A stretch of 64,000 bases of DNA from Mobula birostris. Taxonomy: Eukaryota. Location: contig NC_092381.1 in assembly GCF_030028105.1 (NCBI RefSeq), positions 65,250,505 to 65,314,504 on the forward strand, given 5' to 3'. A model generated the notes under the pieces. It was not told the DNA's origin. It saw only the letters and a program-made list of their open reading frames with translations, and did not search any database. A program made the translations under genes and the position numbers. Shown here one piece after another: positions 1 through 62,639 of the stretch. Numbering within the stretch: the stretch's first letter is position 1; each line of letters starts with the position of its first letter.

Positions 1-938
1 CTTTTCATATGGTTTTACCAAGTGTTTCTTTATAAATGTCAGTGTGTAAGAAATTGACACAGCAGTAATTCATAAGCACTAAGTCTGCTATGTACCATGT
101 ATAAGATCATGAGTGATCCTGTGCCCCAAGTCTATTTTACTGTCTGATCACTATAATGACAATCTCCACAACTCTCTGAAGTGGAAAATTCCAGTAATCT
201 ATAGCACAAGCTGTAAACAGGTATTCCTTTTCCAACATCCTATCCTTAGATTATGCCCCCATAATCTGTCAGCTCACCTCAAAAGTTTGTGTTTCACATT
301 TCATTCCACTGCATTGAGATGTCATGCATGATAGGCCAGGCTTCCTCAATTTTTCTTGATGAAGCATCTTCCTCGTCCCAGGAATCAAATGTTTAGATCT
401 TTGCTTTTGTAACTACATACCAAGTGTTTTTCCAGATATGGAGACCAAAATTGCACAGAGTATTCTAGGAATAGTCCTAATAAAGCCCTATGGAATTTCA
501 TTAAGCTTTTCTTACTGTTGTACTCTAACCCACTTGCATTCCTAATTGTTCTGTTTTTATTTTCATCTTCTAAAGCATTGGACTCAGATCTATTTGCATA
601 CAGTTATTTGGTGCTTATTATTGAAAAACTATTCTGGGTATCTAATATTCCATGCAAAATTCACAGCATATTTTTCCAGTTTGCCTCTGAGGTTTTTCTG
701 CAGACTCTTGTGTCCTTAAAGCATACTTTAACACCCGACTCTGAAATGTCAGGAAACCTGGATTCTGTCTTTATTTTTCAAATAACCTTTGAAAATTACC
801 TGTAGATTATCTTTGTCCTGGGCATATAATTGACCATCACAAATACGAGGAAATCTGCAGATGCTGGAAATTCAAGCAACACACATCAAAGTTGCTGGTG
901 AATGCAGCAGGCCAGGCAGCATCTTTAGGAAGAGGTAC

Positions 939-974
939 AGTCGATGTTTCGGGCCAAGACCCTTCGTCAGGACT
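939..974 (-). ncRNA. Minimal type I hammerhead ribozyme motif (PLE), stem III mutated
   Basis: Minus strand AGTC-CTGACGA-AGGGTCTTGGCCC-GAAACATC-GACT; ACGT palindrome changed to ACAT. Confidence 0.75.
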
Positions 975-1858
975 AACTGAAAGAAGAGCTAGTAAGAAAG
1001 TGGGAGGAGGAGGGGGAGATCCAAAATGATAGGAGAAGACAGGAGGGGGAGGGATGGAGCCAAGAGCTGGACAGTTGATTGGCAAAGGGGATATGAGAGG
1101 ATCATGGGACAGGAGGCCTAGGGAGAAAGAAAAGGGGGAGGGGGGGAAAAACCCAGAGGATGGGCAAGGGGTATAATGAGAGGGACAGAGGGAGAAAAAG
1201 GAGAGAGAGAAAAAGAATGTGTGTATATATAAATAACGGATGGGATACAATGGGGAGTTGGGGCATTAGCGGAAGTTTGAGAAGTCAATGTTCATGCCAC
1301 CAGGTTGGAGGCTACCCAGACGGAATATAAGGTGTTGTTCCTCCAACCTGAGTGTGGCTTCATCTTTACAGTAGAGGAGGCCAGCCTCCGGGTCCAACAT
1401 ATTATTCTCCGTAACTTCTACTTCTGCTACCTCCAACAGGATCCCACCACTAAGCACATCTTTCCCTCCCCCCCCCCACCCCGCTTTCCACAGGGATCGC
1501 TCCCTACGCAACTCCCTTGTCCATTCGCGCCCCCTCCCCCATCCCTCCCCACCGATCTCCCTCCTGGCACTTTCCCTTGTAAGCGGAACAAGTGCTACAC
1601 ATGCCCTTACACTTCCTCCCTTACCACCATTCAGGGCCCCAGACAGTCCTTCCAAGTGAGGCGACACTTCACCTGTGAGTCAGCTGGGGTGTTATACTGC
1701 GTCCGGTGCTCCCGATGTGGCCTTCTATATATTGGCGAGACCCGACGCAGACTGGGAGATCGTTTTGCTGAACGCCTACCCTCTGTCCACCAGAGAAAGC
1801 AGGATCTCCCAGTGGCCACACATTTTAATTGCACCTCCCATTCCCATTCTGATATGTC

Positions 1859-3240
1859 CTGCCTTGTCCCTGTGCCGAAGGCACCGCGCCCCAGCGGCCT
1901 CAATGACTACAGACCAGTGGCATTGACCTCCCACATCATGAAGACCCTGGAGAGACTTGTTCTGGAGTTGCTCCGGCCTATGGTCAGGCTGCACTTAGAT
2001 CCTCTCCAGTTCGCCAACCAGCCCTGACTAGGAGTTGAGGATGCCATCGTCTACCTGCTGAACCGTGTCTATGCCCACCTGGACAAGCCAGCAAGCACTG
2101 TGAGGGTCATTTTTTTTTGACTTCTCCAGTGAGTTCAACACCATCCGCCCTGCCCTGCTAGGAGAGAAGCTGACAGTGATGCAGGTGGATGCTTCCCTGG
2201 TGTCATGGATTCTTGATTACCTGACTGGCAGACCACAGTACTTGTGCTTGCAACACTGTGTGTCCGACAGAGTGATCAGCAGCACTGGGGCTCCATAGGG
2301 GACTGTCTGGTCTCCCTTTCTTTTCACCATTTACACCTCGTACTTCAACTACTGCACAGAGTCTTGTTATCTTCAGAAGTTTTCTGATGACTCTGCCATA
2401 GTTGGATGCATCAGCAAGGGAGATGAGGCTGAGTACAGGACTACGATAGGAAACTTTGTCACATGGTGTGAGCAGAATTATCTGCAGCTTAATATGAAAA
2501 AGACTAAGGAGCTGGTGGTAGACCTGAGGAGAGCTAAGGTACCGGTGACCCCTGTTTCCATCCAGGGGGTCAGGGTGGACATGGTGGAGGATTACAAATA
2601 CCTGGGGATACGAATTGACAATAAACTGGACTGGTCAAAGAACACTGAGGCTGTCTACAAGGAGGGTCAGAGCTGTCTGTATTTCCTGAGGAGACTGAGG
2701 TCCTTTAACATCTACTGGACGATGCTGAGGATGTTCTACAAGTCTGTGGTGGCCAGTGCTATCATGTTTGCTGTTGTGTGCTGGGGCAGCAGGCTGAGGG
2801 TAACAGACACCATCAACAAACTCATTCGTAAGGCCAGTGGTGTTGTGAGGATGGAACTGGACTCTCTGACGGTGGTGTCTGAAAAGAGGATGCTGTCGAA
2901 GTTGCATGCCGTCGAAGTTGCATGCCATCTTGGACAATGTCTCCCATCCACTACATAATGTACTGGGTGGGCACAGGGGTACATTCAGCCAGAAACTCAT
3001 TCCATCGAGATGCAACACAGAGCGTCATAGGAAGTTATTCCTGCCTGTGGCCATCAAACTTTACAACTCCTCCCTTGGAGGGTCAGACACCCTGAGCCAA
3101 TAGGCTGGTCCTGGACTTATTTCCTGCTATAATTTACATATTACTATTTAACTATTTATGGTTTTATTACTATTTATTATTTATGGTGCAACTGTAACGA
3201 AAACCAATTTCCCCCGGGATCAATAAAGTATGACTATGAC
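1859..3240 (+). mobile_element. 5'-truncated Rex1/Babar-type LINE inserted in the PLE
   Basis: RT motifs VPVPK..LNDYRPVALTSHIMKTLERL, LDPLQFA, KFSDD, YKYLG; stops and frameshifts including a 16-bp duplication at 2895-2926; AATAAA plus (ATGACT)n tail. Confidence 0.85.
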
Positions 3241-3659
3241 TATCCACGGCCTCCTCTACTGTAAAGATGAAGCCACACTCAGGTTGGAGGAAGAACACCT
3301 TATATTCCGTCTGGGTAGCCTCCAACCTGATGGCATGAACATTGACTTCTCAAACTTCTGCTAATGCCCCACCTCCCCCTCCTACCCCATCTGTTACTTA
3401 TTTATATGCACACATTCTTTTTCTCTCTCTCCTTTTTCTCCCTCTGTCCCTCTCACTATACCCCTTGCCCATCCTCTGGGTTCCCCCCCCTCCCCCTTTT
3501 CTTTCTCCCTAGGCCTCCTGTCCCTTGATCCTCTCATATCCCTTTTGCCAATCACCTGTCCATCTCTTGGCTCCATCCCTCCCCCTCCTGTCTTCTCCTA
3601 TCATTTTGGATCTCTCCCTCCCCCTCCCACTTTCAAATCTCTTCACTCCTCGTTCAGTT

Positions 3660-3695
3660 AGTCCTGACGAAGGGTCTCGGCCCAAAACGTCAACT
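3660..3695 (+). ncRNA. Degenerate hammerhead motif (core G12 to A)
   Basis: AGTC-CTGACGA-AGGGTCTCGGCCC-AAAACGTC-AACT; probably inactive. Confidence 0.6.
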
Positions 3696-4017
3696 GCACC
3701 TCTTCCTAGAGATGCTGCCTGGCCTGCTGTGTTCACCAGCAACTTTGATGTGTGTTAATTGACCATCAAACTGGTTTTGCACAGTTTCCAGTTCCTAACT
3801 TGTAGTTTGATTTAGCCATATCATGTACTGTTATCAATGAGATACAGCATAAATGCATGCCAGTTTCAAAAGATGATGTGATTTGGAATAACACTTCGAA
3901 AATTTCTGTTTGTAAAAACTAGATTGCAGAATTTCACGCCAGCAAAATAAATATTGCATGCATTTTCCACCTCTGAATCTTAAACTCATCACAGATAAGC
4001 AAACTCTTGATTTACTT

Positions 4018-4048
4018 ACACACACACACACACGCGCGCGTGCGCGCC
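4018..4048. repeat. (CA)n/(CG)n alternating purine-pyrimidine microsatellite
   Basis: acacacacacacacacgcgcgcgtgcgcgc read directly. Confidence 0.85.
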
Positions 4049-7000
4049 CACCCGCCCACCAATCTGAGTTCATAATTTTCATATTAATTTATTGGTTAGG
4101 CATTGTTTGTTATATTGCTTGTTATTTCATATTTTTTTGGTTAATCATTTTGGTACAGTGTTTTGGTGGTTGGTGCCTTTGGGCAGAGTGCCCACAAGAA
4201 AAGTCTATTAAATATCCAAATGCATCCTTTGACATGATTTATAGTGTTTGTCCTGTGTTCTGTCATGGCATTCACAAACGCCTGAACTACTGTTTATACA
4301 GGTACCTGAAAGAAGTGGAAGGCCATAAACAGAAAGATTGGACTAACATTTCAGTAATTCTGCATTTAAAATTATCACTGCACCATCTGGTAGTTTTTAC
4401 CATAAAAGTTAACAGATTCCTCTGCAGAAAGTTAACTGAAATATGAAAGTTTGACTTCTGTTTGTGTGGTTGGGATTGAGAACCAGTAGTCCTATACTGG
4501 CCATGCAGCATTGGCAAAGTAATATGCATTTATTAAAAGCATTAACATTTATGGAAGTTTTACCAAGAATTTATTGAACATGTAGAGAATTTGGAACTCA
4601 CCTCTTTTTATTTTCTTACAGGAATCAACTTGAGCTATGATTGATCTCCATTTTCAAGGAACTTATAAGATCCAGTTCCCGAACTTTTTTTGTCTGAAAC
4701 TGTACTCTCAGCTCCATTTGAATAAACACTTAACAGCAAGATTTTGTTGCCATTTGTAGTCTGGTAGTATCACTTTTTTATTGATCAGTATGGACTGCAA
4801 TACTTGATAACTTGTATTTATTAAAAAAAGTGTAACCAACTTTATATTGTTCCTGGAGCTGCTAAAATTGGAAAATTTTAATTTCAGTGTAAACAAATCA
4901 TTTGCTTCTAACTCTTTCTGATCATAACCTTACATCTTTTTGAGGTTGCAAGATTCTAGACTGTTTTTAACAAGTAAGGGATCCATGGTGACTTGGCTGT
5001 TTGGATTCAAAATTGGCATGTCCATAAAAATCAGAGGGTGGTGGCAGTGGAACTTATTTTGACTGGAGGTCTGTGTCTCGTCATGTCTGCAGGGGTCTGT
5101 ACTAGGACCTCTGTTGTTCGTAGTAATGTTATATAATAGTGACTTGGAAGAAAATGTGGATGGGTGAGTTGGTAGGTTTGCAGATGGTACTAAGATCATT
5201 GGCAATATGGATAGTTTAGGAAATAGAATATAGTTGCAGATATGGGTGGTGAATTGCTGATAGAGTTTAATCCAGCCAGTATAAGGTGTTGTATTTCGAG
5301 AGAGCAGTTGTAAAGAGACAGTAAACAATTAATGGCAAGACCCTTAAGAGTGTTAATGTACAGAAGAATGTTGGGGTCCTAGTTTACAGCTCTCTGAAAG
5401 TGACTACACAGGTTGGTAGAATGGTAAAGTAGGCAGACAGCATAGAAATAGAACCATAGAAAAACTACAGCACAGAAACAGGCCTTTTGGCCCTTCTTGG
5501 CTGCCGAACCATTTTCTGCCTAGTCCCACTGACCTGCACACGGACCATATCCCTCCATACACCCCCCATCCATGTATCTGTCCAATTTATTCTTAAATGT
5601 TAAAAAAGAACTCGCATTTACCACCTCGTCTGGCAGCTCATTCCACACTCCCACCACTCTCTGTGTGAAGAAGCCCCCCCTAATGTTCCCTTTAAACTTT
5701 TCCCCCTTCACCCTTAACCCATGTCCTCTGGTTTTTTTCTCCCCTTACCTCAGTGGAAAAAGCCTGCTTGCATTCACTCTATCTATACCCATCATAATTT
5801 CATATACCTCTATCAAATCTCCCCTCATTCTTCTACGCTCCAGGGAATAAAGTCCTAACCTATTCAACCTTTCTCTGTAACTGAGTTTCTCAAGTCCTGG
5901 CAACATCCTTATAAACCTTCTCTGCACTCTTTCAACCTTATTTATATCCTTCCTGTAATTTGGTGACCAAAACTGAACACAATACTCCAGATTCGGTCTC
6001 ACCAATGCCTTATACAACCTCATCATAACATTCCAGCTCTTATACTTGAATACTTTGATTAATAAAGGCCAATGTACCAAAAGCTCTCTTTACGACCCTA
6101 TCTACCTGTGATGCGACTTTTAGGGAATTTTGTATCTGTATTCCCAGATCCCTCTGTTCCACTGCACTCCTCAGTGCCTTACCATTAACCCTGTATGTTC
6201 TACCTTGGTTTGTCCTTCCAAAGTGCAATACCTCACACTTGTTTGTATTAAACTCCATCTGCCATTTTTCCAGCTGGTCCAAATCCCTCTGCAAGCTTTG
6301 AAATCCTTCCTCACTGTCCACTACACCTCCAATCTTTGTATCATCAGCAAATTTGCTGATCCAATTTACCACATTATCATCCAGATCATTGATATAGATG
6401 ACAAATAACAATGGACCCAGCTCTGATCCCTGTGGCACACCACTAGTCACAGGCCTCCACTCTGAGAAGCAATTCTCTACTCTTTGGCTTCTTCCATTGA
6501 GCCAATATCTAATCCAATTTACTACCTCTCCATGTATACCTAGCAACTGAATTTTCCTGACTAACCTCCCATGCGGGACCTTGTCAAAGGCCTTACTGAA
6601 GTCCATGTAGACAACATCCACTGCCTTCCCTTCATCCACTTTTCTGATAACCTCCTCGAAAAACTCCAATAGATTGGTCAAACATGACCTACCACGCACA
6701 AAGCCATGTTGACTCTCCCTAATAAGTCCCTGTCTATCCAAATGCTTGTAGATTCTATCTCTTAGTACTCCCTCCAATAACTTACCCACTACCGACGTCA
6801 AACTTACTGGCCTATAATTTTCCGGATTATTTTTCGATCCTTTTTTAAACAACAGAACAACATGAGCCATTCTCCAATCCTCCAGCACCTCACCCGTAGA
6901 CACCAACATTTTAAATATATCTGCCAGGGCCCCTGCAATTTCAACACTAGTCTCCTTCAAGGTCCGAGGGAATACCCTGTCAGGTCCCAGGGATTTATCC

Positions 7001-7106
7001 ACTTTAATTTGCCTCAAGATAGTAAGCACCACCTCCTTTTCAATCTCCACACATCAAAGTTGCTGGTGAACGCAGCAGGCCAGGCAGCATCTCTAAGAAG
7101 AGGTGC

Positions 7107-7142
7107 AGTCGACGTTTCAGGCCGAGACCCTTCGTCAGGACT
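7107..7142 (-). ncRNA. Minimal type I hammerhead ribozyme motif, intact core
   Basis: Minus strand AGTC-CTGACGA-AGGGTCTCGGCCT-GAAACGTC-GACT. Confidence 0.85.
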
Positions 7143-8257
7143 AACTGAAGGAAGAATGAGTAAGGGATTTGAAAGTTGGAGGGGGAGGGGGAGATCCAAA
7201 ATGATAGGAGAAGACAGGAGGGGGAGAGATGGAGCCAAGAGCTGGACAGGTGATAGGCAAAAGGGGATACGAGAGGATCATGGGACAGGAGGTCTGGCAA
7301 GAAAGACAAGGGGGGGGGGGACCCAGAGGATGGGCAAGAGGTATATTCAGAGGGACAGAGGGAGAAAAAGGAGAGTGAGAGAAAGAATGTGTGCATAAAA
7401 ATAAGTAACAGATGGGGTACGAGGGGGAGGTGGGGCCTAGCGGAAGTTAGAGAAGTCGATGTTCATGCCATCAGGTTGGAGGCTACCCAGACAGAATATA
7501 AGGTGTTGTTCCTCCAACCTGAGTGTGGCTTCATCTTTACAGTAGAGGAGGCTGTGGATAGACATGTCAGAATGGGAATGGGATGTGGAATTAAAATGTG
7601 TGGCCACTGGGAGATCCTGCTTTCTCTGGCGGACAGAGCGTAGATGTTCAGCAAAGCGGTCTCCCAGTCTACGTCGGGTCTCGCCAATATATAAAAGGCC
7701 ACATCGGGAGCACCGGACGCAGTATATCACCCCAGTCGACTCACAGGTGAAGTGTTGCCTCACCTGGAAGGACTGTTTGGGGCCCTGAATGGTGGTAAGG
7801 GAGGAAGTGTTAAGGGCATGTGTAGCACTTGTTCCGCTTACATGGATAAGTGCCAGGAGGGAGATCAGTGGGGAGGGATGGGGGGGACGAATGGACAAGG
7901 GAGTTGTGTAGGGAGCGATCCCTGCGGAATGCAGAGAGAGGCGGGGAGGGAAAGATGTGCTTAGTGGTGGGATCCCGTTGGAGGTGGCGGAAGTTACGGA
8001 GAATAATATGTTGGACCCGGAGGCTGGTGGGGTGGTAGGTGAGGACCAGGGGAACCCTATTCCTAGTGGGGTGGCGGGAGGATGGAGTGAGAGCAGATGT
8101 GCGTGAAATGGGGGAGATGCGTTTAAGAGCAGAGTTGATAGTGGAGGAAAGGAAGCCCCTTTCTTTAAAAAATGAAGACATCTCCCTCGTCCTAGAATGA
8201 AAAGCCTCATCCTGAGAGCAGATGTGGCGGAGACGGAGGAATTGCGAGAAGGGGACG

Positions 8258-8398
8258 CTATAAGCCTACTGACTCTCATAGCCTACTATAAGCCTACTGA
8301 TTCTCACAGCTTACTATAAGCCTACTGACTCTCACAGCATACTATATGCCTACTGACTCTCACAGCTATACTATAAGCCTACTGACTCTCACAGCTAT
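8258..8398 (+). repeat. 5 x 28-29 bp tandem repeat (CTATAAGCCTACTGACTCTCACAGCNTA)
   Basis: Five near-identical units; the last reads on in frame as YKPTDSHSYLGYSSSHPVSCKNAIPFSQ (PLE RT thumb). Confidence 0.9.
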
Positions 8399-8703
8399 CT
8401 GGGCTATTCCTCTTCTCACCCTGTCTCTTGCAAAAACGCCATCCCCTTCTCGCAATGCACACATTCTTTCTCTCACTCTCCTTTTTCTCCCTCTGTCCCT
8501 CTGAATATACCTCTTGCCCATCCTCTGGGTCCTTCCCCCCCATCTTTCTTCCCGGACCTCCTGTCCCATGATCCTCTCGTATCCCCTTTTGCCAATCACC
8601 TGTCCAGCTCTTGGCTCCATCCCTCCCCCTCCTGTCTTCTATCATTTTGGATCTCCCCCTCCCCCTCCAACTTTCAAATCCCTTACTCACTCTTCCTTCA
8701 GTT

Positions 8704-8739
8704 AGTCCTGACGAAGGGTCTCGGCCCGAAACGTCGACT
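8704..8739 (+). ncRNA. Minimal type I hammerhead ribozyme motif, best copy
   Basis: Stem I AGTC/GACT; core CTGACGA (8708-8714); extra A; stem II GGGT-CTCG-GCCC; GAA; palindromic stem III ACGT; predicted cleavage after C8735 (GUC). Confidence 0.88.
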
Positions 8740-10379
8740 GCACCCCTTCCTAGAGATGCTGCCTGGCCTGCTGCATTCACCAGCAACTTCGATGTGTGTT
8801 GCTTGAATTTCCAGCATCTGCAGAATTCCTGTTGTTTTCCTTTTCAATCTCTACAGTTTCCATGATCTCACTACTTGTTTCCCTTAATTCCATAGATTTC
8901 ATGCCAGTTTCCTTAGTAAATACAGACGCAAAAAACTCATTTAAGATCTCCCCCATGTCTTTTGGTTCCACACATAGCTGACCACTCTGATCTTCAAGAG
9001 GACCAATTTTATCCCTTACAATCCTTTTAATATACCTGTAAAAGCTCTTTGGATTATCCTTCACTTTGACTGCCAAGGCAACCTCACGTCTTCTTTTAGC
9101 CCTCCTGATTTCCTTCTTAAGTATTTTCTTGCACTTTTTATACTCCTCAAGCACCTTATTTACTCCCTGTTTCCTATACATGTCCTACAACTCTCTCTTC
9201 TTTATCAGAGTTGCAATATCCCTTGAGAACCAAGGTTCCTTATTCCTATTCACTTTGCCTTTAATGCTGACAGGAACATACAAGCTCTGCACTCTCCTTT
9301 GAAGGCTTCCCAATTACCGATCACATCCTTGCCAGAGAACAACCTATCCCAATCCACACTTTTTAGATCCTTCCTCATTTCTTCAAATTTGGCCTACTTC
9401 CAGTTTAGAACCTCAACCCTAGGACCAGATCTGTCTTTATCCATGATCAAGTTGAAACTAATGGTGTTATGATCACTGGAACCAAAGTGCTCACCTACAC
9501 ACACTTCCGTCACTTGTCCTAACTCATTTCCTAATAAGAGATCTAATACTGCATCCCCTCTAGTTGGTACCTCTATATATTGATTTAGAAAACTCTCCTG
9601 AACACATTTTACAAACTCTAACCCATCTAGACCCCTAACAGTATGGGAGTCCCAATCAATATGTGGAAAATTAAAATCCCCTACCACCACAACTTTATGT
9701 TTCCTGCAGCTGCCTGCTATCTCTCTGCAGATTCTCGCTGACTATTGGGTGGTCTATAATATGATCCCACTAATGTGGCCATACCTTTCCTGTTTCTCAG
9801 CTCCACCCATAAGGACTCAGTAGACAAGCCCTCTAATCTGTCCTGCCTGAGCACTGCTGTAACATTTTCCCTGACAAGCAATGCTACCCCTCCACCTTTC
9901 ATTGCTCTGCCTCTATCACATCGGAACCCTGGAACTTTAACTTTATTAGTAAAGGCACCGAGTTCAAGAGTCAGGAAGTTAATCTGCAGCTTTATAAAAC
10001 TATTAAATTATTAAACATGCATCTAAAGGATGCTTTCATTTCTGATTGCCCCATTATAAGGATGTGGAGGCAATGAAGGGGGTTACAGAGGAAGTTTACC
10101 AAGATACCTTCTAGATTAGAAGGCAGGTACTATAAAGAGAGATGGGACAAACTTGGGCTGCTTTCTGTGGAATGGCAGAGGCTGAGGGGAGACCTGGTGG
10201 AGGTTTATAAGATTATGAGAGGCATAGATACACATCCAACTTCCATTTCCCAGGGCTGAAATGTCTAGAGGGCATATATTTAAAGTGAGACAGGGTAATA
10301 TCAAAGGAAATATACTGGACAAGTTCTTAATTTCACCGAAAGTGGTGGGCACCTGGAATATTTCCACTACATACCACAT

Positions 10380-24479: not shown

Positions 24480-24620
24480 GAATGGATGCTGGAAATCTGG
24501 AGCAAAACATAAAATGCTGGAGTAACTCAACAAGTCAGGAAGCATCTACAGAGGGGAATAAATAGTCAGTGCTTCAGGCTGAAACACTTCAGGATTGATG
24601 AATTTTGCATGTGTTGCTTA
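24480..24620 (-). mobile_element. Short PLE 3'-end remnant with decayed hammerhead
   Basis: gatgctggaaat...aaaatgctggagtaactcaacaagtcagg matches the PLE 3' ends elsewhere in the window. Confidence 0.6.
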
Positions 24621-52085: not shown

Positions 52086-52189
52086 CCAGCTTCAACAGAC
52101 AGGGTTAGATAGATCTGGGCTTCTCAGCCTTGACAAGAGGCTGAATGAGAAATTGTCTTATTTCATTAAACAGTAAAAGAGAGAAAGCA

Positions 52190-54930
52190 GAGCAGCACAC
52201 ACAAAATGCTGGAGGAACTCTGCAGGTCAGGCGGCATCTTCCGAAATGAAGAAAAAGTTGATGCTTCAGGGCAAGGCCCTTCTTCAGGACTGGAAAGGAG
52301 TGGGGAAGATGCCAGAATAAAAGGGTGGGAGGAAGGGAAGGAGGATTAGCTAGAAGGCAACAAGTGAAGCCAAGTGGGTGCGAAAGGTAAAAGGTCTGGA
52401 GGAGAATCAATTAATCAGAAAGGAGAGTGGACCATGGGATAAAAGGAAGGCGGCAGGTGAAAGTCAGGTGAGAAGAAGAGGTAAGAGGCCTGAGCGGGGA
52501 ATAGAAGAGGGAAGGAGGAGGAAAAAACTATGGGAAAGAGAAATCAAAGTTCATGCCATCAGGTTGGAGGCTGCCTAGATGGAATATGAGGTATTGCTCT
52601 TCCACCCTGTTACCTGCCTCATTGTGGCAAAAGAGGAGTCCATGGACTGACATGTCGAACAGGAATGGGGTTAGGAATTTAAATGGTTGCACACCAGGAA
52701 AATACCACTTTTGGTAGATGTTATGGAGGTGCTTGACATAGAGGTCCCCCGATTTATGATGGGTTTCACCAAAGTAGAGGAGGCTGCATTGGGAACAATG
52801 GATGCAATAGACAACTCCAACAGATTTGCTGGTGAAGTATTGCCTCACCTGAAAGGACCGTTTGTGGTCCTGAATGGAGGTGAGGGAGGAGGTTGATGGG
52901 ATGTAGCATCTGTCACTTGCAGGGGTATGTGCCAGGAAGGACATTGGTAGGACATGATTCCCTGAGACAAGGGAACCATGGTGGGAACGATTTGCGTAGA
53001 AGGCGGAGAATTGGTGGGGATTGTGGAAAGCCAAAGGTGAGTTTGGTAGTAGGATCCTGTTGAAGAGGATGGTAGTTGCAGAGGATGATGGGTTGGATGT
53101 GGAGACTCATGGGGTGGAAAGTGAGGACAAAAAGAACTCAACCCTTTTCGGGCAATGGAAAGATGGGATGAGCATAGATGTCCGGGAAATGGAGAAGATA
53201 TGGGTGAAGGCAATATCAATTTGATGTCTTGGAAAGGAAAACATCATCCTGGAACAAATGTGGCAGAGATGAAGCTTTGAAGGTGTACACCTCTGATGAT
53301 CTGACAGAAATGAGAAAATGTCATCCAGAACATTACTTCAAGTGAAACTGTGACTGGATAAAGGACATTAAACTCTCTGCTTCTTTCTCAATAAAGAACC
53401 AACCAGTTCCCCTCCTCCATGTTGTAGAGCTGGTCCTCACCCTCAACTTTTCCTTCGACTCCCCCACTTTCTCCAGACTCAAGGGGTAGCCATGGGCACC
53501 TGCATGAGCCCCAGTTATGCCTGCCTTTTCCTTGGCTATGTCAAACAGTCCATGTTCCAAGCTTCCCCAGTAATGCTCCCCAACTCTTCCTCCGCTACAT
53601 TGATGACTGCATTGGTGCTGCTTCATGCATCCTTGCTGAGCTCGTCAATTTCATCAACTTTGCCTCCAACTTCCATCCTGCCCTTAAATTCACTTAGTCC
53701 ATTTCTGACAAGTCCCTTCCCTTTCTTGATCTCTGTCTCAATTTCTGGAGAAAACTGTCAACCAACATCTTTTATAAACCAACCAATTCCCACCCTAGCT
53801 CCTGTAAAAATGCCATTTCCTTTTCTCAGTTCCTTCATCTCTGCTGTACCTGTTCCCAGGATGCTTGTTTTCTTTCCAATACATCAGAGATAGCCTCCTT
53901 CTTCAAAGAACAGGGTTGTCCTTCCTCCACCTTTGATGCTGCCCTTACCCACATCTCCATTTCCCAAACATCAGTGCTCACCTCATCTTCTCACTTACTT
54001 GACAGTGATAGAGTTCCTCTTGTCCTTACCCACCACCCCATGAGCCTCCGCATCCAACACATCAACACCGCAACTTCCGTCATCTCCAAAGGGATCCTAC
54101 TGCCAAACACACCTTTACCTCCCTCCCCCTCTGCCTTCTGCATGGATCACCCACTTTGTGATTCCCTTGTCCATTCATCCCTCCCCACTAATCTCCTTCC
54201 TGACACTTATCCCTGCAAGCAGCCCATGTGGTACACCTGCCCATTCACCTCATCATCTCCATTCAGGGCCCCAAACAGTCCTTCCAGGTGAGGCAACACT
54301 TCATCTGTGAATCTGCAGAGGTTGTCTATTGTGTCCCATGCTCCTGATGTGGTGAGTTGGTGAGACTCATCGTAAATTGAGGTCTGCTTCATCGAGCACC
54401 TCCGCTCCATCCACCAAAAGTGGAACTTCCTGGTGACCAAACATTTTAATTATGATTCCCTTTCCTGTTGCGACATGCTAGTCCATGGCTTCCTCTTGTG
54501 CCATGATGAGGCCACCCTCAGGGTGGAGGAGCAACACCATATATTCTGTCTGGGTAGCCTCCAACCTGATGGCATGGATATCGATTTCTCCTTCCAGTAA
54601 GAAAATAATTTCCTTCCCACTCCCTCTTTTCCTCACTCTGGCTTCTTGCCTCTTCTCACTTGTGTATCACCTCCCCCTGGGTCCCCTCCTCCTTTCCTTT
54701 CTCCTATGTTCTATGCTCCTCTCCTATCAGATTCCTTCTTTTCTAGTCCTTTACCTTTCCCACCCACCTGGCCTCACCTATCACCCTCTAGCTCTCCTCC
54801 TTCCCCTCCCCCCCCTTTTATTCTGGCATCTTCCCCCCTCCTTTCCAGTCCTGAAGGATTAACTGTTTATTCATTTTCATAGCAGATGCCTGACCTGCTG
54901 AGTTCCTCCGGCATTTTGTTTGTATTGCTT
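52190..54930. mobile_element. Older Penelope-like element, inverted two-arm structure with RT core
   Basis: Minus arm about 52190-53270; plus arm about 53290-54930 with QTQGVAMGTCMSPSYA, LRYIDD and decayed GIY-YIG; decayed hammerheads at 52256-52291 (minus) and about 54847 (internally deleted). Confidence 0.85.
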
Positions 54931-56025: not shown

Positions 56026-57442
56026 ACTGGGACTGCATAAGATCCTATGAGCATCAGCAAATACAGAGATGTATTCCATCACTATCTGTAACTTCATTCC
56101 TGGAATATCGCTTCTTCTCTTTAAGTCCATCATGCTTTCTGTGGCATAGACCACCCACAGCAGCTTACGTCCATCCTGGACCAGTCTTTCATGTCATCCC
56201 AGGTGTAGCCCATCTTCTCCCAAGAATGAAGTCTCTGGCTCTCCTGGCATTTTTTGTGGCTCTGGGTTTTTACAGGATGGGGTTGCTCACTCCATGACTA
56301 ACCATCCTCATTTTGCATCTGGGCTTGGGACTGTTCATGGTGGAGTTTGCCCAGAATATCCCTCTACCATTACTCAGGCTGGGGTATCAACCCTGGTTCA
56401 ATAAGGAGTGCAGAGGACATGCCAGTGATGATGAAAAATGCAGGGCACATACCAAAACCAGCACGCAATTAGCAGATCAGATCAAAGCTGTGCAGTTCTT
56501 TCACATCTCATCATGAATGTTGTGAAGAGGGAAACAGTTAACTGGGGAAGGAGATTCCACAAAGATCCCACTCTCAATGTCTGAGTGTTAAAGACACACT
56601 TGAAGCATTTGCAACCAAGTTCAGATCTGGAATGGATAATCTATCTCCAATTACTTATGTTGAATCACTTTCGTAGAAGTCAATCTTCAGTTAATTTATT
56701 TGACTCTCTATGACATCAAAAATGATCCAAGAGCACTGGTTATGTTGAAAGTTTCCCCAAGGCAGTACTAACAGGCAGTACTCCAGTAAGACCTGTAACT
56801 CTGAGCAATCTGAACCAAGTGATCAGCTTGCTTCCATGAGTCTGCACTCTGTCCATCATGGCCACCTGGAGCCATGTCACTCCCCTTCCCACCCCCACAC
56901 CAATATCTCTCACCAGACTTGTCCATAGTGAAGACAAATGCAAATGACAGAATCAGCACCTCACACTCACCCTGGGCAAAAAAAAAAAAAAACAAAAGAA
57001 CTTAAAGGCAATAAATATTGAATTTCTGGTAAACTGCCTCTTTTCTGGCCCTTTTTTGCCTCCTACTGATCTACCCAGTTCCTCTTACACCACCTCACAC
57101 CCCATTTCCTTCTTCCTTTCCCACTACACCTACCCGTCACCCACACACCATGCCCACAGGTTCCCTTCCCTCATTGTCCCCATCTCCCTTGCAACACAAA
57201 CAAAATACTGCATGAACTCAGCAGGCCAGGCTGTATCTATGGAAAAGATTAAACAGTCGCATTTCGGGCTGAGACTCTTTATCACAAAAAACTGTGGGTC
57301 AATTCTTTAAGAAAAATAACTAGATGGCTTGAGTTGCAAAAATTGAGGTGCTTTTATTTACCTCAAAACAAAACAAAAACTGGAAAAAAACATATATAGT
57401 CACCCTCAGACTAAACACAAAAGAAAACTAACTCCAAAGCCT

Positions 57443-59397: not shown

Positions 59398-59871
59398 TAA
59401 CTTCAAAGCCTTGCTAACCTGAGGCTTGTAACTGCTAAGCCCCTCCCCCTAGACCAACCAAAAGCTAATTAACTCAATTATCCATTTAAAGATGGTATCC
59501 TCCACCATCAGCACACCTGTGCAGGTTGCTGCTGCCTCTATGAGACAGCTCCATGCAGCAGCTCTGGTTCAGACCCAGTCACTATTACCGCTGGGGATAA
59601 GTGTTTTACCGAGTGCGCCATATGCCATCCGTAATCAGTGACAGGCCTTCATCACACCCTTCATCAGGGCTCCCATCTCCCCTCTCCTTTATTTGGTTCC
59701 ATGCTCCACTTTCCTTTCCAATCAGATTCCATCAGACTGTCTCCACCCATCACCTCCCAGTCTCTGTCACAACTTCCACTCATCCTTCCTCCATCTCCCT
59801 ATCCCCCCTCCCCACATGGCTTCTCAGCTCTGGCTCCACTCTTCCCCTTGCCTCGCTACACTGGTTATTTC

Positions 59872-59907
59872 AGTCCAGATGAAGGGTCTTGACCCAAAAC
59901 ATTGACT
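59872..59907 (+). ncRNA. Decayed hammerhead motif in an old PLE 3' remnant
   Basis: AGTC-CAGATGA-AGGGTCTTGACCC-AAAACATT-GACT; two core mutations. Confidence 0.5.
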
Positions 59908-60234
59908 GTCCACTTCCTTCGAATAGGCTGCCTGACCCACTGACTTCCCCAGCAGTTTCTTTCTCAGTTTGGTACAGTTTCAACAGTGGCATCCACTGTA
60001 CAATGTACAATGCACAGTCAAGTCAAGTGAAGTGAAGTTTATTGTCACTTAACTACATATAATGTATATAACCATATAATATACATGGAAACGCAGCAAT
60101 GTTTCTTCGAACTGTTGAACACATGTACTTTCTGTTGACAAAAATAAGGACAAATTCAATCCTGTGAAGTGAAGTCCAATTAGTCCACTCTCAATCATCA
60201 TCAAAGCAATGTAAGCTTTCATCAATAGCACCAT

Positions 60235-60578
60235 CAAGCAGAACATGTCAGAATGGGAATGAGGATAGGGATTAAAACACTGGCAACTGGGAAGTTCCAC
60301 TTTTGGTTGGTGCAGAGGAGGTGCTCGACAAAGCAGTCACCAAATTTACATCCATTTGTCTCTCCCCACTAATCTTCTTCCTGACACATATCCTTGCAAG
60401 GAACAGAAATGCTACATCTGCCCATTCATCTCCTCCTTCACTTCCATTCAGGGCCCCAAACAGTCCTTCCAGGTGAGGCAACGCTTCACCTGCAAATTTC
60501 TTGTGGTCATCTACCGTATCTGGTGTTCCTGGTGCAGCCTCTTCTACATTGGTGAGACAAGATGTAAATTGGGGGATC
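60235..60578. mobile_element. Short inverted PLE remnant (GIY-YIG)
   Basis: Minus piece 60241-60340 abuts a plus piece 60350-60575 encoding VIYRIWCSWCSLFYIGET. Confidence 0.75.
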
Positions 60579-60847
60579 TAGATGATAGTAGGCTTCTTAA
60601 AGCAGAGGGAACCACAGCCTGAAGCAGGGAGAGGTTAAAACATGCCTGCAAATACCCTGCCAACTGATCTGCACAAGGGTCTAAGGCCAAGGCCAGGGAC
60701 ACCATCTGAGCTCGATGTTTCCTGAGGGTTCACTCTTCAGAAGACTGATCATATGCCCATGATAGTGACTGCAGAAAGAGATACACTGGAGACTATCAGA
60801 GTGGGTGGTGACATCCCTTCTGTTTATAGCATACATAGAATGTGCGA

Positions 60848-60977
60848 ACACGAGGAATTCTGCAGATGCTGGAAATTCAAGCAATACACATCAAAGTTGC
60901 TGGTGAACGCAGCAGGCCAGGCAGCATCTCTAGGAAGAGGTACAGTCGACGTTTCAGGCCAAGACCCTTCGTCAGGA
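60848..60977 (-). mobile_element. Solo PLE 3'-end insertion of about 130 bp starting at the hammerhead (60944-60977)
   Basis: TSD GAA(T/C)GTGCGA at 60838-60847 and 60976-60985; intact core CTGACGA..GAAACGTC. Confidence 0.8.
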
Positions 60978-61129
60978 ACGTGCGAGTTCATTGGGAAGGG
61001 TCAAGCTGTCGTCTGCGATGCTGTCTGCCTTTATTTTCTAACCCATTATAAGGTATAATCCCCGCCACAGCTGATGGCTGCACTAAGAGTTGACCTTGGA
61101 TTTGTACTGTCCCTTAGCATCTCTGATAC

Positions 61130-62310: not shown

Positions 62311-62639
62311 CTATATATCTATTGTGCTTTCCCAAACTTTAAAATAAACCATTTTAAGACATTATGTGAAACTTTTTGTAGTACTTATAAGAGTACACAA
62401 ATTTGATTTAACTTTGAATTTTATGCAACCCTGTGTTCAGTGAAAGGTCTTGGTCTGAAACATCAACTCTTTATTCCTCTTTATAGATGCTGCCTGATCT
62501 GCTGAGTTCCTCCAGCATCTTGTGTGTGCAAATGCTTCAAAGAACTTTTTTTCCCTGCATGAAATACTCTAAACCTATAGAGAGAAGATTAAAAGAAGCA
62601 TTATAAATTTATAACATCTCAGCACTATCCTAGCCCAAA

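Follow-up and report, generated by a model that had tools for sequence, protein, structure and literature searches.

Inverted Penelope-like element insertions with one tailed arm each in Mobula birostris: a probable outcome of twin priming

Two inverted insertions of a Penelope-like element (PLE), here called A (827-3768) and B (7034-8851), lie in a 64,000-nucleotide stretch of the Mobula birostris genome (assembly GCF_030028105.1, contig NC_092381.1, positions 65,250,505 to 65,314,504; hereafter the window, whose own numbering is used below). Each is a pair of arms of which only one carries the last stretch of the 3′ end, the tail, and when a related family is counted as well, every pair bounded by a target site duplication (TSD) has exactly one tailed arm (18 of 18 over two families, 2 in the window and 16 in an assembly referred to as G001). 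Such pairs are probably made by twin priming, in which reverse transcription starts at an inner site on one target strand and at an outer site on the other.

In both elements the arms are joined head to head with their 3′ ends outward, and a single exact TSD, 13 bp in A (TAATTGACCATCA) and 14 bp in B (TCCTTTTCAATCTC), surrounds the whole pair; each string occurs exactly twice in the window, which bears out the description in an earlier note on this DNA. Among 20,000 random position pairs examined as a control (5-nt slop, match length recorded up to 30 nt), the longest match was 11 nt, bar five pairs at 30 nt that are presumably self-overlaps. When the 3′ ends are aligned, the long arms of A and B both stop at TTTGATGTGTG(T) (site 1), and the short arms extend 39 nt beyond (38-39 nt allowing for a one-base ambiguity with the TSD), so the shared early stop reported previously is confirmed with a fixed value in place of a loose 35-40 nt. 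An independent check on the tail end is provided by a solo copy of the same family, C, which ends within about 3 nt of the outer end of the short arms and is flanked by a 10-bp TSD with one mismatch (60838-60847 and 60976-60985). The arms of each pair overlap by approximately 345-505 nt and are without poly(A), the centres are without a palindrome, and in both elements the tail-less arm extends beyond the 5′ limit of the corresponding part of the tailed arm.

That A and B are each one insertion is supported by the single TSD and by the grouping of the arms. Over 337 shared columns, divergence is 6.8% between the arms of A and 4.2% between those of B, as against 8.6-8.9% for cross pairs, and 10 of 11 informative sites place the arms with their own element, so that each pair has one source. 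It is extremely improbable that two separate insertions, or a later rearrangement, made each inverted pair. The family is extremely abundant, nesting is common, and A itself holds a nested long interspersed element (LINE), all of which would favour such a history, but one TSD spans each pair, the arms group by element, the end positions are fixed, and no internal TSDs were seen, whereas arms with TSDs of their own were what the earlier note had said would overturn its proposal. The separate-insertion reading is refuted for A and B, and is possible for an older inverted copy, D.

The larger sample came from a scan of genome contigs, which returned five loci of a related PLE (46-48% amino-acid identity), all in one assembly, G001, and on eukaryotic-looking contigs. 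This assembly is filed among prokaryote genomes, and at least 46 of its contigs carry the animal-type PLE family together with microsatellites, which looks like host contamination. All 46 contigs from the searches' listings were examined; one search scored 40 of 99 candidates. The ends of the 61 arms with an anchor upstream of site 1 are bimodal, 29 lying at -65 to -56, 25 at -11 to +6 and 7 in between, which gives two sites about 57 nt apart.

TSDs were sought in 25 hand-picked candidate entries with at most one mismatch; a script found 15 pairs with an 11-14-bp TSD (one is 17 bp, partly element sequence), and a sixteenth was found by eye. All 16 consist of one tailed and one tail-less arm. 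Independent 50:50 choice of site would leave about half of the pairs unmixed, and the chance for 15 mixed pairs would be 0.5^15 = 3e-5. Three other mixed pairs (C10b, C283 and C645) are without a clear TSD and were left outside the 16 and inside a wider set of 19, in which the tail is on the arm of shorter 5′ reach in 6 pairs and of longer reach in 2, the arms being within 20 nt of each other in 11; the statement that the short arm has the complete 3′ end is therefore correct for A and B and not as a rule. Set aside before the count were C15 (both arms tail-less, with flanks that are inverted too, hence a larger palindrome), C205 (ends at -59 and -48, no TSD, a tail fragment 3.2 kb off), C39 and C243 (one event twice, partial tail, no TSD), and C475, C555 and C667 (one 3′ end missing). 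In the 16 overlapping G001 pairs, derived variants common to both partners occupy 35 of 1431 sites (2.4%) versus 0.55 ± 0.26% when arms are re-paired, a level reached in 0 of 5000 permutations. Among single-arm copies, 3 of 16 have a TSD of at least 13 bp.

Several steps can be envisioned for the reaction. Judging from the TSDs, the GIY-YIG nuclease would cut both target strands 11-14 nt apart and leave two 3′ overhangs, and each 3′-OH would prime reverse transcription on the element RNA, one at site 1 and the other at site 2, the outer site, 39 nt further 3′. The pairing of one site with each strand is what we infer here. The two cDNAs would end at variable points and be joined head to head, perhaps often via a short microhomology or palindrome, and repair would make the TSD, the product being two outward arms of which exactly one has the tail. 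Both cDNAs would come from the same source element and probably from the same RNA molecule, which is the weakest step. A biochemical precedent exists in PAc, a Poseidon PLE of Anolis carolinensis (Frangieh et al. 2024, PMC11167929), for which both target strands are cleaved and extended in vitro, two internal RNA start sites bracket the tail, and the enzyme is predicted to be a dimer. Given these two start sites and the bimodal G001 ends, the stereotyped breakpoint is best read as a second priming site, one of the two explanations suggested earlier. The geometry and the 16 mixed pairs are consistent with priming from both target ends. Twin priming as first proposed is right in outline, with details that are wrong or unproven.

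The single RNA molecule is the least certain element of this scheme, resting on C110 and C591 in G001, where the tailed arm lies wholly inside the tail and has nothing in common with the other arm, and on a jump in the short arm of B that lands no more than 15 nt from the long-arm stop, as is expected if one RNA served both cDNAs. A number of points weigh against twin priming at two sites. The window offers only two clean cases, and the count of 16 is from another organism with hand-picked boundaries; PMC11167929 saw no difference between top and bottom strand in start site. Two RNAs of the same donor, or gene conversion at a later time, would give shared variants as well, and the B jump is one post hoc case that a later deletion or small inversion could explain. 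D has two tail-less arms; at a single indel-rich place the two arms of A disagree, the long one there seeming closer to B; and G001 holds another family with a hammerhead (L024:235-2247, contig C110) whose two arms end at the same base. Finally, the perfectly palindromic junctions of C85, C227, C491 and C539 fit a fold-back equally well.

Fold-back self-priming, the reading given in PMC3846280 and PMC8557442, would have one cDNA or antisense template fold back and be copied into the second arm, with the endonuclease resolving the intermediate at site 1 and stripping the tail from one arm. It would explain the shared variants and the one-tail rule, and palindromic junctions at which the two arms share their last base (TCGA in C85 and C491, TTCGAA in C227, and that of C539) are of a kind reported in PMC3846280. 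The arms of C110 and C591, however, share nothing, so neither can be a fold-back copy of the other, and this route cannot yield non-overlapping arms, nor a tail-less arm that far exceeds its tailed partner in length (A, B, C161, C645 and C728b); the centres of A and B are also without a palindrome. We consider it unlikely in general, and as the sole route it is ruled out by C110, C591, A and B.

Hardly better prospects attach to twin priming on a partial-tandem RNA, the template that the earlier note had called for, in which the long arm would be primed in the downstream pseudo long terminal repeat (pLTR) and the tailed short arm in the upstream one, running to the RNA 5′ end. PLEs are transcribed from tandems (PMC11167929), and many short G001 arms stop at -160 to -163, about 30 nt below TATATAAA (L026:1950-1985), a candidate pLTR promoter with a plausible transcript start; C475 and C728b pair a short tailed arm of that kind with a long arm. 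Yet A and B have short arms (543 nt in A; 383 nt plus RT-thumb sequence in B, RT being reverse transcriptase) that stop at unrelated points, the tailed arm is the longer-reaching one in C485 and C642, tailed and tail-less arms of mini-pairs reach the same 5′ point and hence used one pLTR, and no tandem copy was seen in the window. Nor is a need for such an RNA supported: as the short arm of A holds the last ~39 codons of the open reading frame (ORF) and that of B holds RT-thumb sequence, both are derivable from the ordinary 3′ end of one transcript.

Table 1. Coordinates of elements A and B, their hammerhead motifs and other copies in the window.
Feature	Position	Strand	Remarks
TSD A, left copy	827..839	.	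13 bp, TAATTGACCATCA; exact match to 3756-3768
A short arm	840..1382	-	543 nt; last ~39 codons of GIY-YIG ORF, 3′ untranslated region (UTR), hammerhead, full 3′ end
A tail	840..878	-	39 nt, between start sites 1 and 2
Minimal hammerhead, A short arm	939..974	-	motif; decayed, GTC triplet to ATC
A long arm, part 1	1381..1858	+	linker with CX4CxxC motif and GIY-YIG core
LINE nested in A long arm	1859..3240	+	5′-truncated, 1.38 kb, RVT_1 and ALKBH8_N, without TSD
A long arm, part 2	3241..3755	+	tail-less end TTTGATGTGTGT (site 1)
Minimal hammerhead, A long arm	3660..3695	+	motif; core GAAA to AAAA
TSD A, right copy	3756..3768	.	13 bp; exact match to left copy
TSD B, left copy	7034..7047	.	14 bp, TCCTTTTCAATCTC; inside presumed CR1-like LINE ORF on minus strand
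B long arm	7048..8257	-	~1.2 kb; RT thumb, linker, GIY-YIG (1 frameshift), 3′ UTR, tail-less end TTTGATGTGTG
Minimal hammerhead, B long arm	7107..7142	-	motif; core intact, stem II closing C to T
B short arm, whole	8258..8837	+	
Repeats in B short arm	8258..8398	+	five head-to-tail copies of 28-29-nt PLE RT segment (YKPTDSHS)
Upstream RT segment of B short arm	8371..8456	+	
B short arm, 3′ piece	8455..8837	+	383 nt, full 3′ end; tail 8799-8837
Minimal hammerhead, B short arm	8704..8739	+	motif; unaltered core, bulged A before stem II, ACGT palindrome replacing helix III
TSD B, right copy	8838..8851	.	14 bp; exact match to left copy
D, older family	52186..54930	.	head-to-head arms, 70% alike
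H, old inverted fragment	60235..60578	.	two contiguous endonuclease segments, ~16 nt duplicated at breakpoint
C, solo copy of A/B family	60848..60975	-	128 nt; hammerhead and full tail

Both elements hold features that had been overlooked. The PLE sequence of the A long arm runs uninterrupted across the nested LINE, presumably Rex1/Babar-like, which has a short 3′ microhomology with its PLE target in place of a TSD. The left junction of A (300-866) is crossed by contigs of sequencing runs X1 and X5, while a contig of run X16 matches 376-839 and then continues with 746 letters of other sequence, as an empty site would; this pile-up on 300-1860 covered 4 of 23 listed runs. A lower summed depth over the tail bin was set aside because depth swings several-fold between bins. 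Element B interrupts an ORF with a Pfam RVT_1 match, which we take to be of CR1 type, and whose frame reads ...METVEIEK and EIEKEVVLT... on either side, the peptide overlapping across the TSD. The junctions between the central repeats of its short arm differ by a letter or two each (C, T, A, TA), and the array has the look of a PLE RT that primed again and again on a single short template, and not of unequal crossing-over at a later time. The adjoining RT segment stops 15 nt inside the long-arm start and is followed by the jump, of about 845 nt, to the 3′ UTR with a 2-nt microhomology. An inverted upstream segment ending inside the start of the opposite arm was seen three times, with overlaps of ~16 nt at 60235-60578, 15 nt at 8241-8456 and 61 nt at L090:3667-4962.

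Each arm of A and B carries a putative hammerhead, one on each strand, as had been claimed, although of the four only that at 8704-8739 is intact. A search with Rfam (E ≤ 1) over the window gave no hammerhead and two chance snoRNA matches, and the assignment draws on the motif together with PMC4209133 (Cervera and De la Pena 2014). According to that source, minimal PLE hammerheads are without helix III and have a palindrome at 15.2-16.2, an extra base between 9 and 10.1, and a G10.1-C11.1 pair; the motifs here share the traits of this type and differ from it in that three of four copies are decayed. With two hammerheads per insertion on opposite strands, an active dimer would be impossible from one transcript of the insertion. 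The arm ends were considered as hammerhead cut sites, a notion that was rejected since they lie approximately 63 and 102 nt downstream of the cut. In both families site 1 falls ~63-66 nt below the cut and coincides with the base that opens the 3′ strand of a predicted hairpin, which is suggestive only. Over 86-140 nt the ray 3′ end did not fold better than shuffled sequence (z -0.55 to +0.58), the predicted 54-56-nt hairpin there is weak (z -1.6 and -1.8), and its counterpart in the G001 family has z -3.4.

Some arm starts in G001 also touch the hammerhead. Those in C119 (L069:1186), C383 (L081:5092) and C660 (L100:4993) begin at the predicted cleavage site (-125/-126), three others (C227 and C431 among the entries) at a palindrome 4 nt downstream of it, and 6 of 9 listed starts between -140 and -66 lie in the 6-nt span that takes in both points. 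Arm starts at the cut hint at hammerhead-cut RNA serving as template in vivo; PMC11167929 did not see such RNA in RNA-seq. The second G001 family at L024:235-2247 is an 870-nt inverted pair, 98% alike, with five matches in that assembly. In the window, a pyrimidine tract ending in CAG or TAG directly precedes the hammerhead (3640-3663 and 8684-8707) and resembles a 3′ splice site; copy C begins at about the boundary between tract and hammerhead, and an intron ending at helix I is described for Penelope of D. virilis (PMC4209133). A frame, SPDEGSRPETS...FQHLQNSS, is open through hammerhead and tail (8704-8837) in A, B and C and is possibly the N-terminus of the ORF, as in PAc.

Older copies show the shape less completely. 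The copies at 52190-54930 (D) and 60235-60578 (H) are inverted, as previously reported, and do not share the asymmetry: both arms of D end ~5-10 nt into the tail region, neither with the full tail, and no TSD was found adjacent to it, while neither endonuclease segment of H has a 3′ terminus. Short solo 3′ ends of older PLE families lie at 24484-24591, 57190-57285, 59870-59957 and 62441-62530, of which two stop at about site 1, one enters the tail and one stops short. Neither a full-length copy nor a tandem one (a full ORF flanked by direct pLTRs) was seen within the window.

A and B are ordinary copies of an endonuclease-positive (EN+) PLE of Neptune/Nematis type. Pfam GIY-YIG matches in B at 22.7 bits (cut-off 22.6), RT-thumb and RT-core matches lie upstream of it in B and D (tblastn with relatives), and the CCHH motif is present, with CSRC between VIY and LYIG and conserved His residues. 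The RT-EN linker of A and B reads CKRNKCYTC (CX4CxxC); in aligned relatives its first and third Cys are invariant (11 of 11) and the second is at least 90% conserved. A CX2-5CxxC linker marks Neptune or Nematis and is lacking in Penelope/Poseidon (PMC8557442), which rules out the latter, and the C-terminal endonuclease and the hammerhead rule out Naiad/Chlamys (N-terminal endonuclease, no canonical hammerhead). Neptune is the likelier of these two on account of the vertebrate host, Neptune and Poseidon being widespread vertebrate clades (bioRxiv 2026.07.22.740005). The targets of A and B are not microsatellites, which sets them apart in the Neptune/Nematis comparison. The closest of 31 protein matches is from Mobula hypostoma (95% identical), followed by Hypanus, and the family is very abundant, with 70,598-237,575 contigs per run aligned to 1.5 kb. 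Metagenome pattern scans gave 0 matches at first and then 22 loci, in all of which the match was confined to the ~21-24-nt pattern, and of 64 candidates for the element among viral contigs 0 were confirmed.

The lopsided mirror-image shape, which the earlier note had presented as surprising, is a known insertion signature of EN+ PLEs. An inverted 5′-truncated copy adjacent at the 5′ end, often with a 30-40-bp tail at one end, is described by Craig et al. 2021 (PMC8557442), and the same shape, with 8-10-bp TSDs and self-priming proposed, by Arkhipova et al. 2013 (PMC3846280); A and B resemble these insertions in the inverted copy, the one-ended tail (39 nt in A, B and C), the TSDs and the hammerhead in the terminal repeat, and differ in having neither a full ORF nor a direct pLTR. 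In the sections consulted these two papers give no pair counts; there the tail is put down to resolution by the endonuclease, self-priming is held to cause the inversion, and PMC8557442 calls the origin of the inverted repeats and one-ended tails open. PAc is alike in its two start sites below the hammerhead with the tail between, its AT-rich targets, the cutting and extension of both strands and a stem-loop at the start site, and differs in belonging to Penelope/Poseidon, whereas the A/B family has the CX2-5CxxC linker; PMC11167929 does not discuss inverted arms or link the two start sites to inverted copies. PMC9977147 and bioRxiv 2026.07.22.740005, likewise seen in excerpt, hold nothing further on arm geometry. 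A literature search whose scope excluded older subscription papers turned up no count of how tails pair in PLEs and no paper explaining PLEs by twin priming; the one-end rule may already appear in Arkhipova 2006, Evgen'ev and Arkhipova 2005, or Pyatkov 2004. The proposal that each target strand has its own start site in twin priming, for which no printed statement was found, is a modest mechanistic addition.

The process works like the twin priming of L1 without reproducing its pattern. In L1, both target strands prime cDNA, at the poly(A) and at a variable internal site, and the arms do not overlap. A and B share the head-to-head inversion inside one TSD, but their sites are both fixed, 39 nt apart, and such arms usually overlap by hundreds of bases, so that the contiguous non-overlapping arms with poly(A) on one that typify L1 are not what is found.

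A stronger claim, which we hold only tentatively, is that PLE integration is obligately coordinated two-site twin priming, in which one (probably dimeric) enzyme on one RNA would prime one target strand at site 1 and its partner strand at site 2. If true, this rule would account at once for the inversion of the arms, the tail at one end only and the 11-14-bp TSD, and B would record the event: the second RT, after displacing ~345 nt of the cDNA made first, would have jumped to RNA exposed at the first RT's stop and re-copied a 28-nt segment four more times, in a telomerase-like manner, before joining. Overall, the description itself adds little, since tail and inverted copy are already listed as curation features (PMC8969392), and the useful part is the count of pairs: the tally of 18 of 18 turns the question of inverted repeats and one-ended tails into a simple, testable prediction of one site per end.

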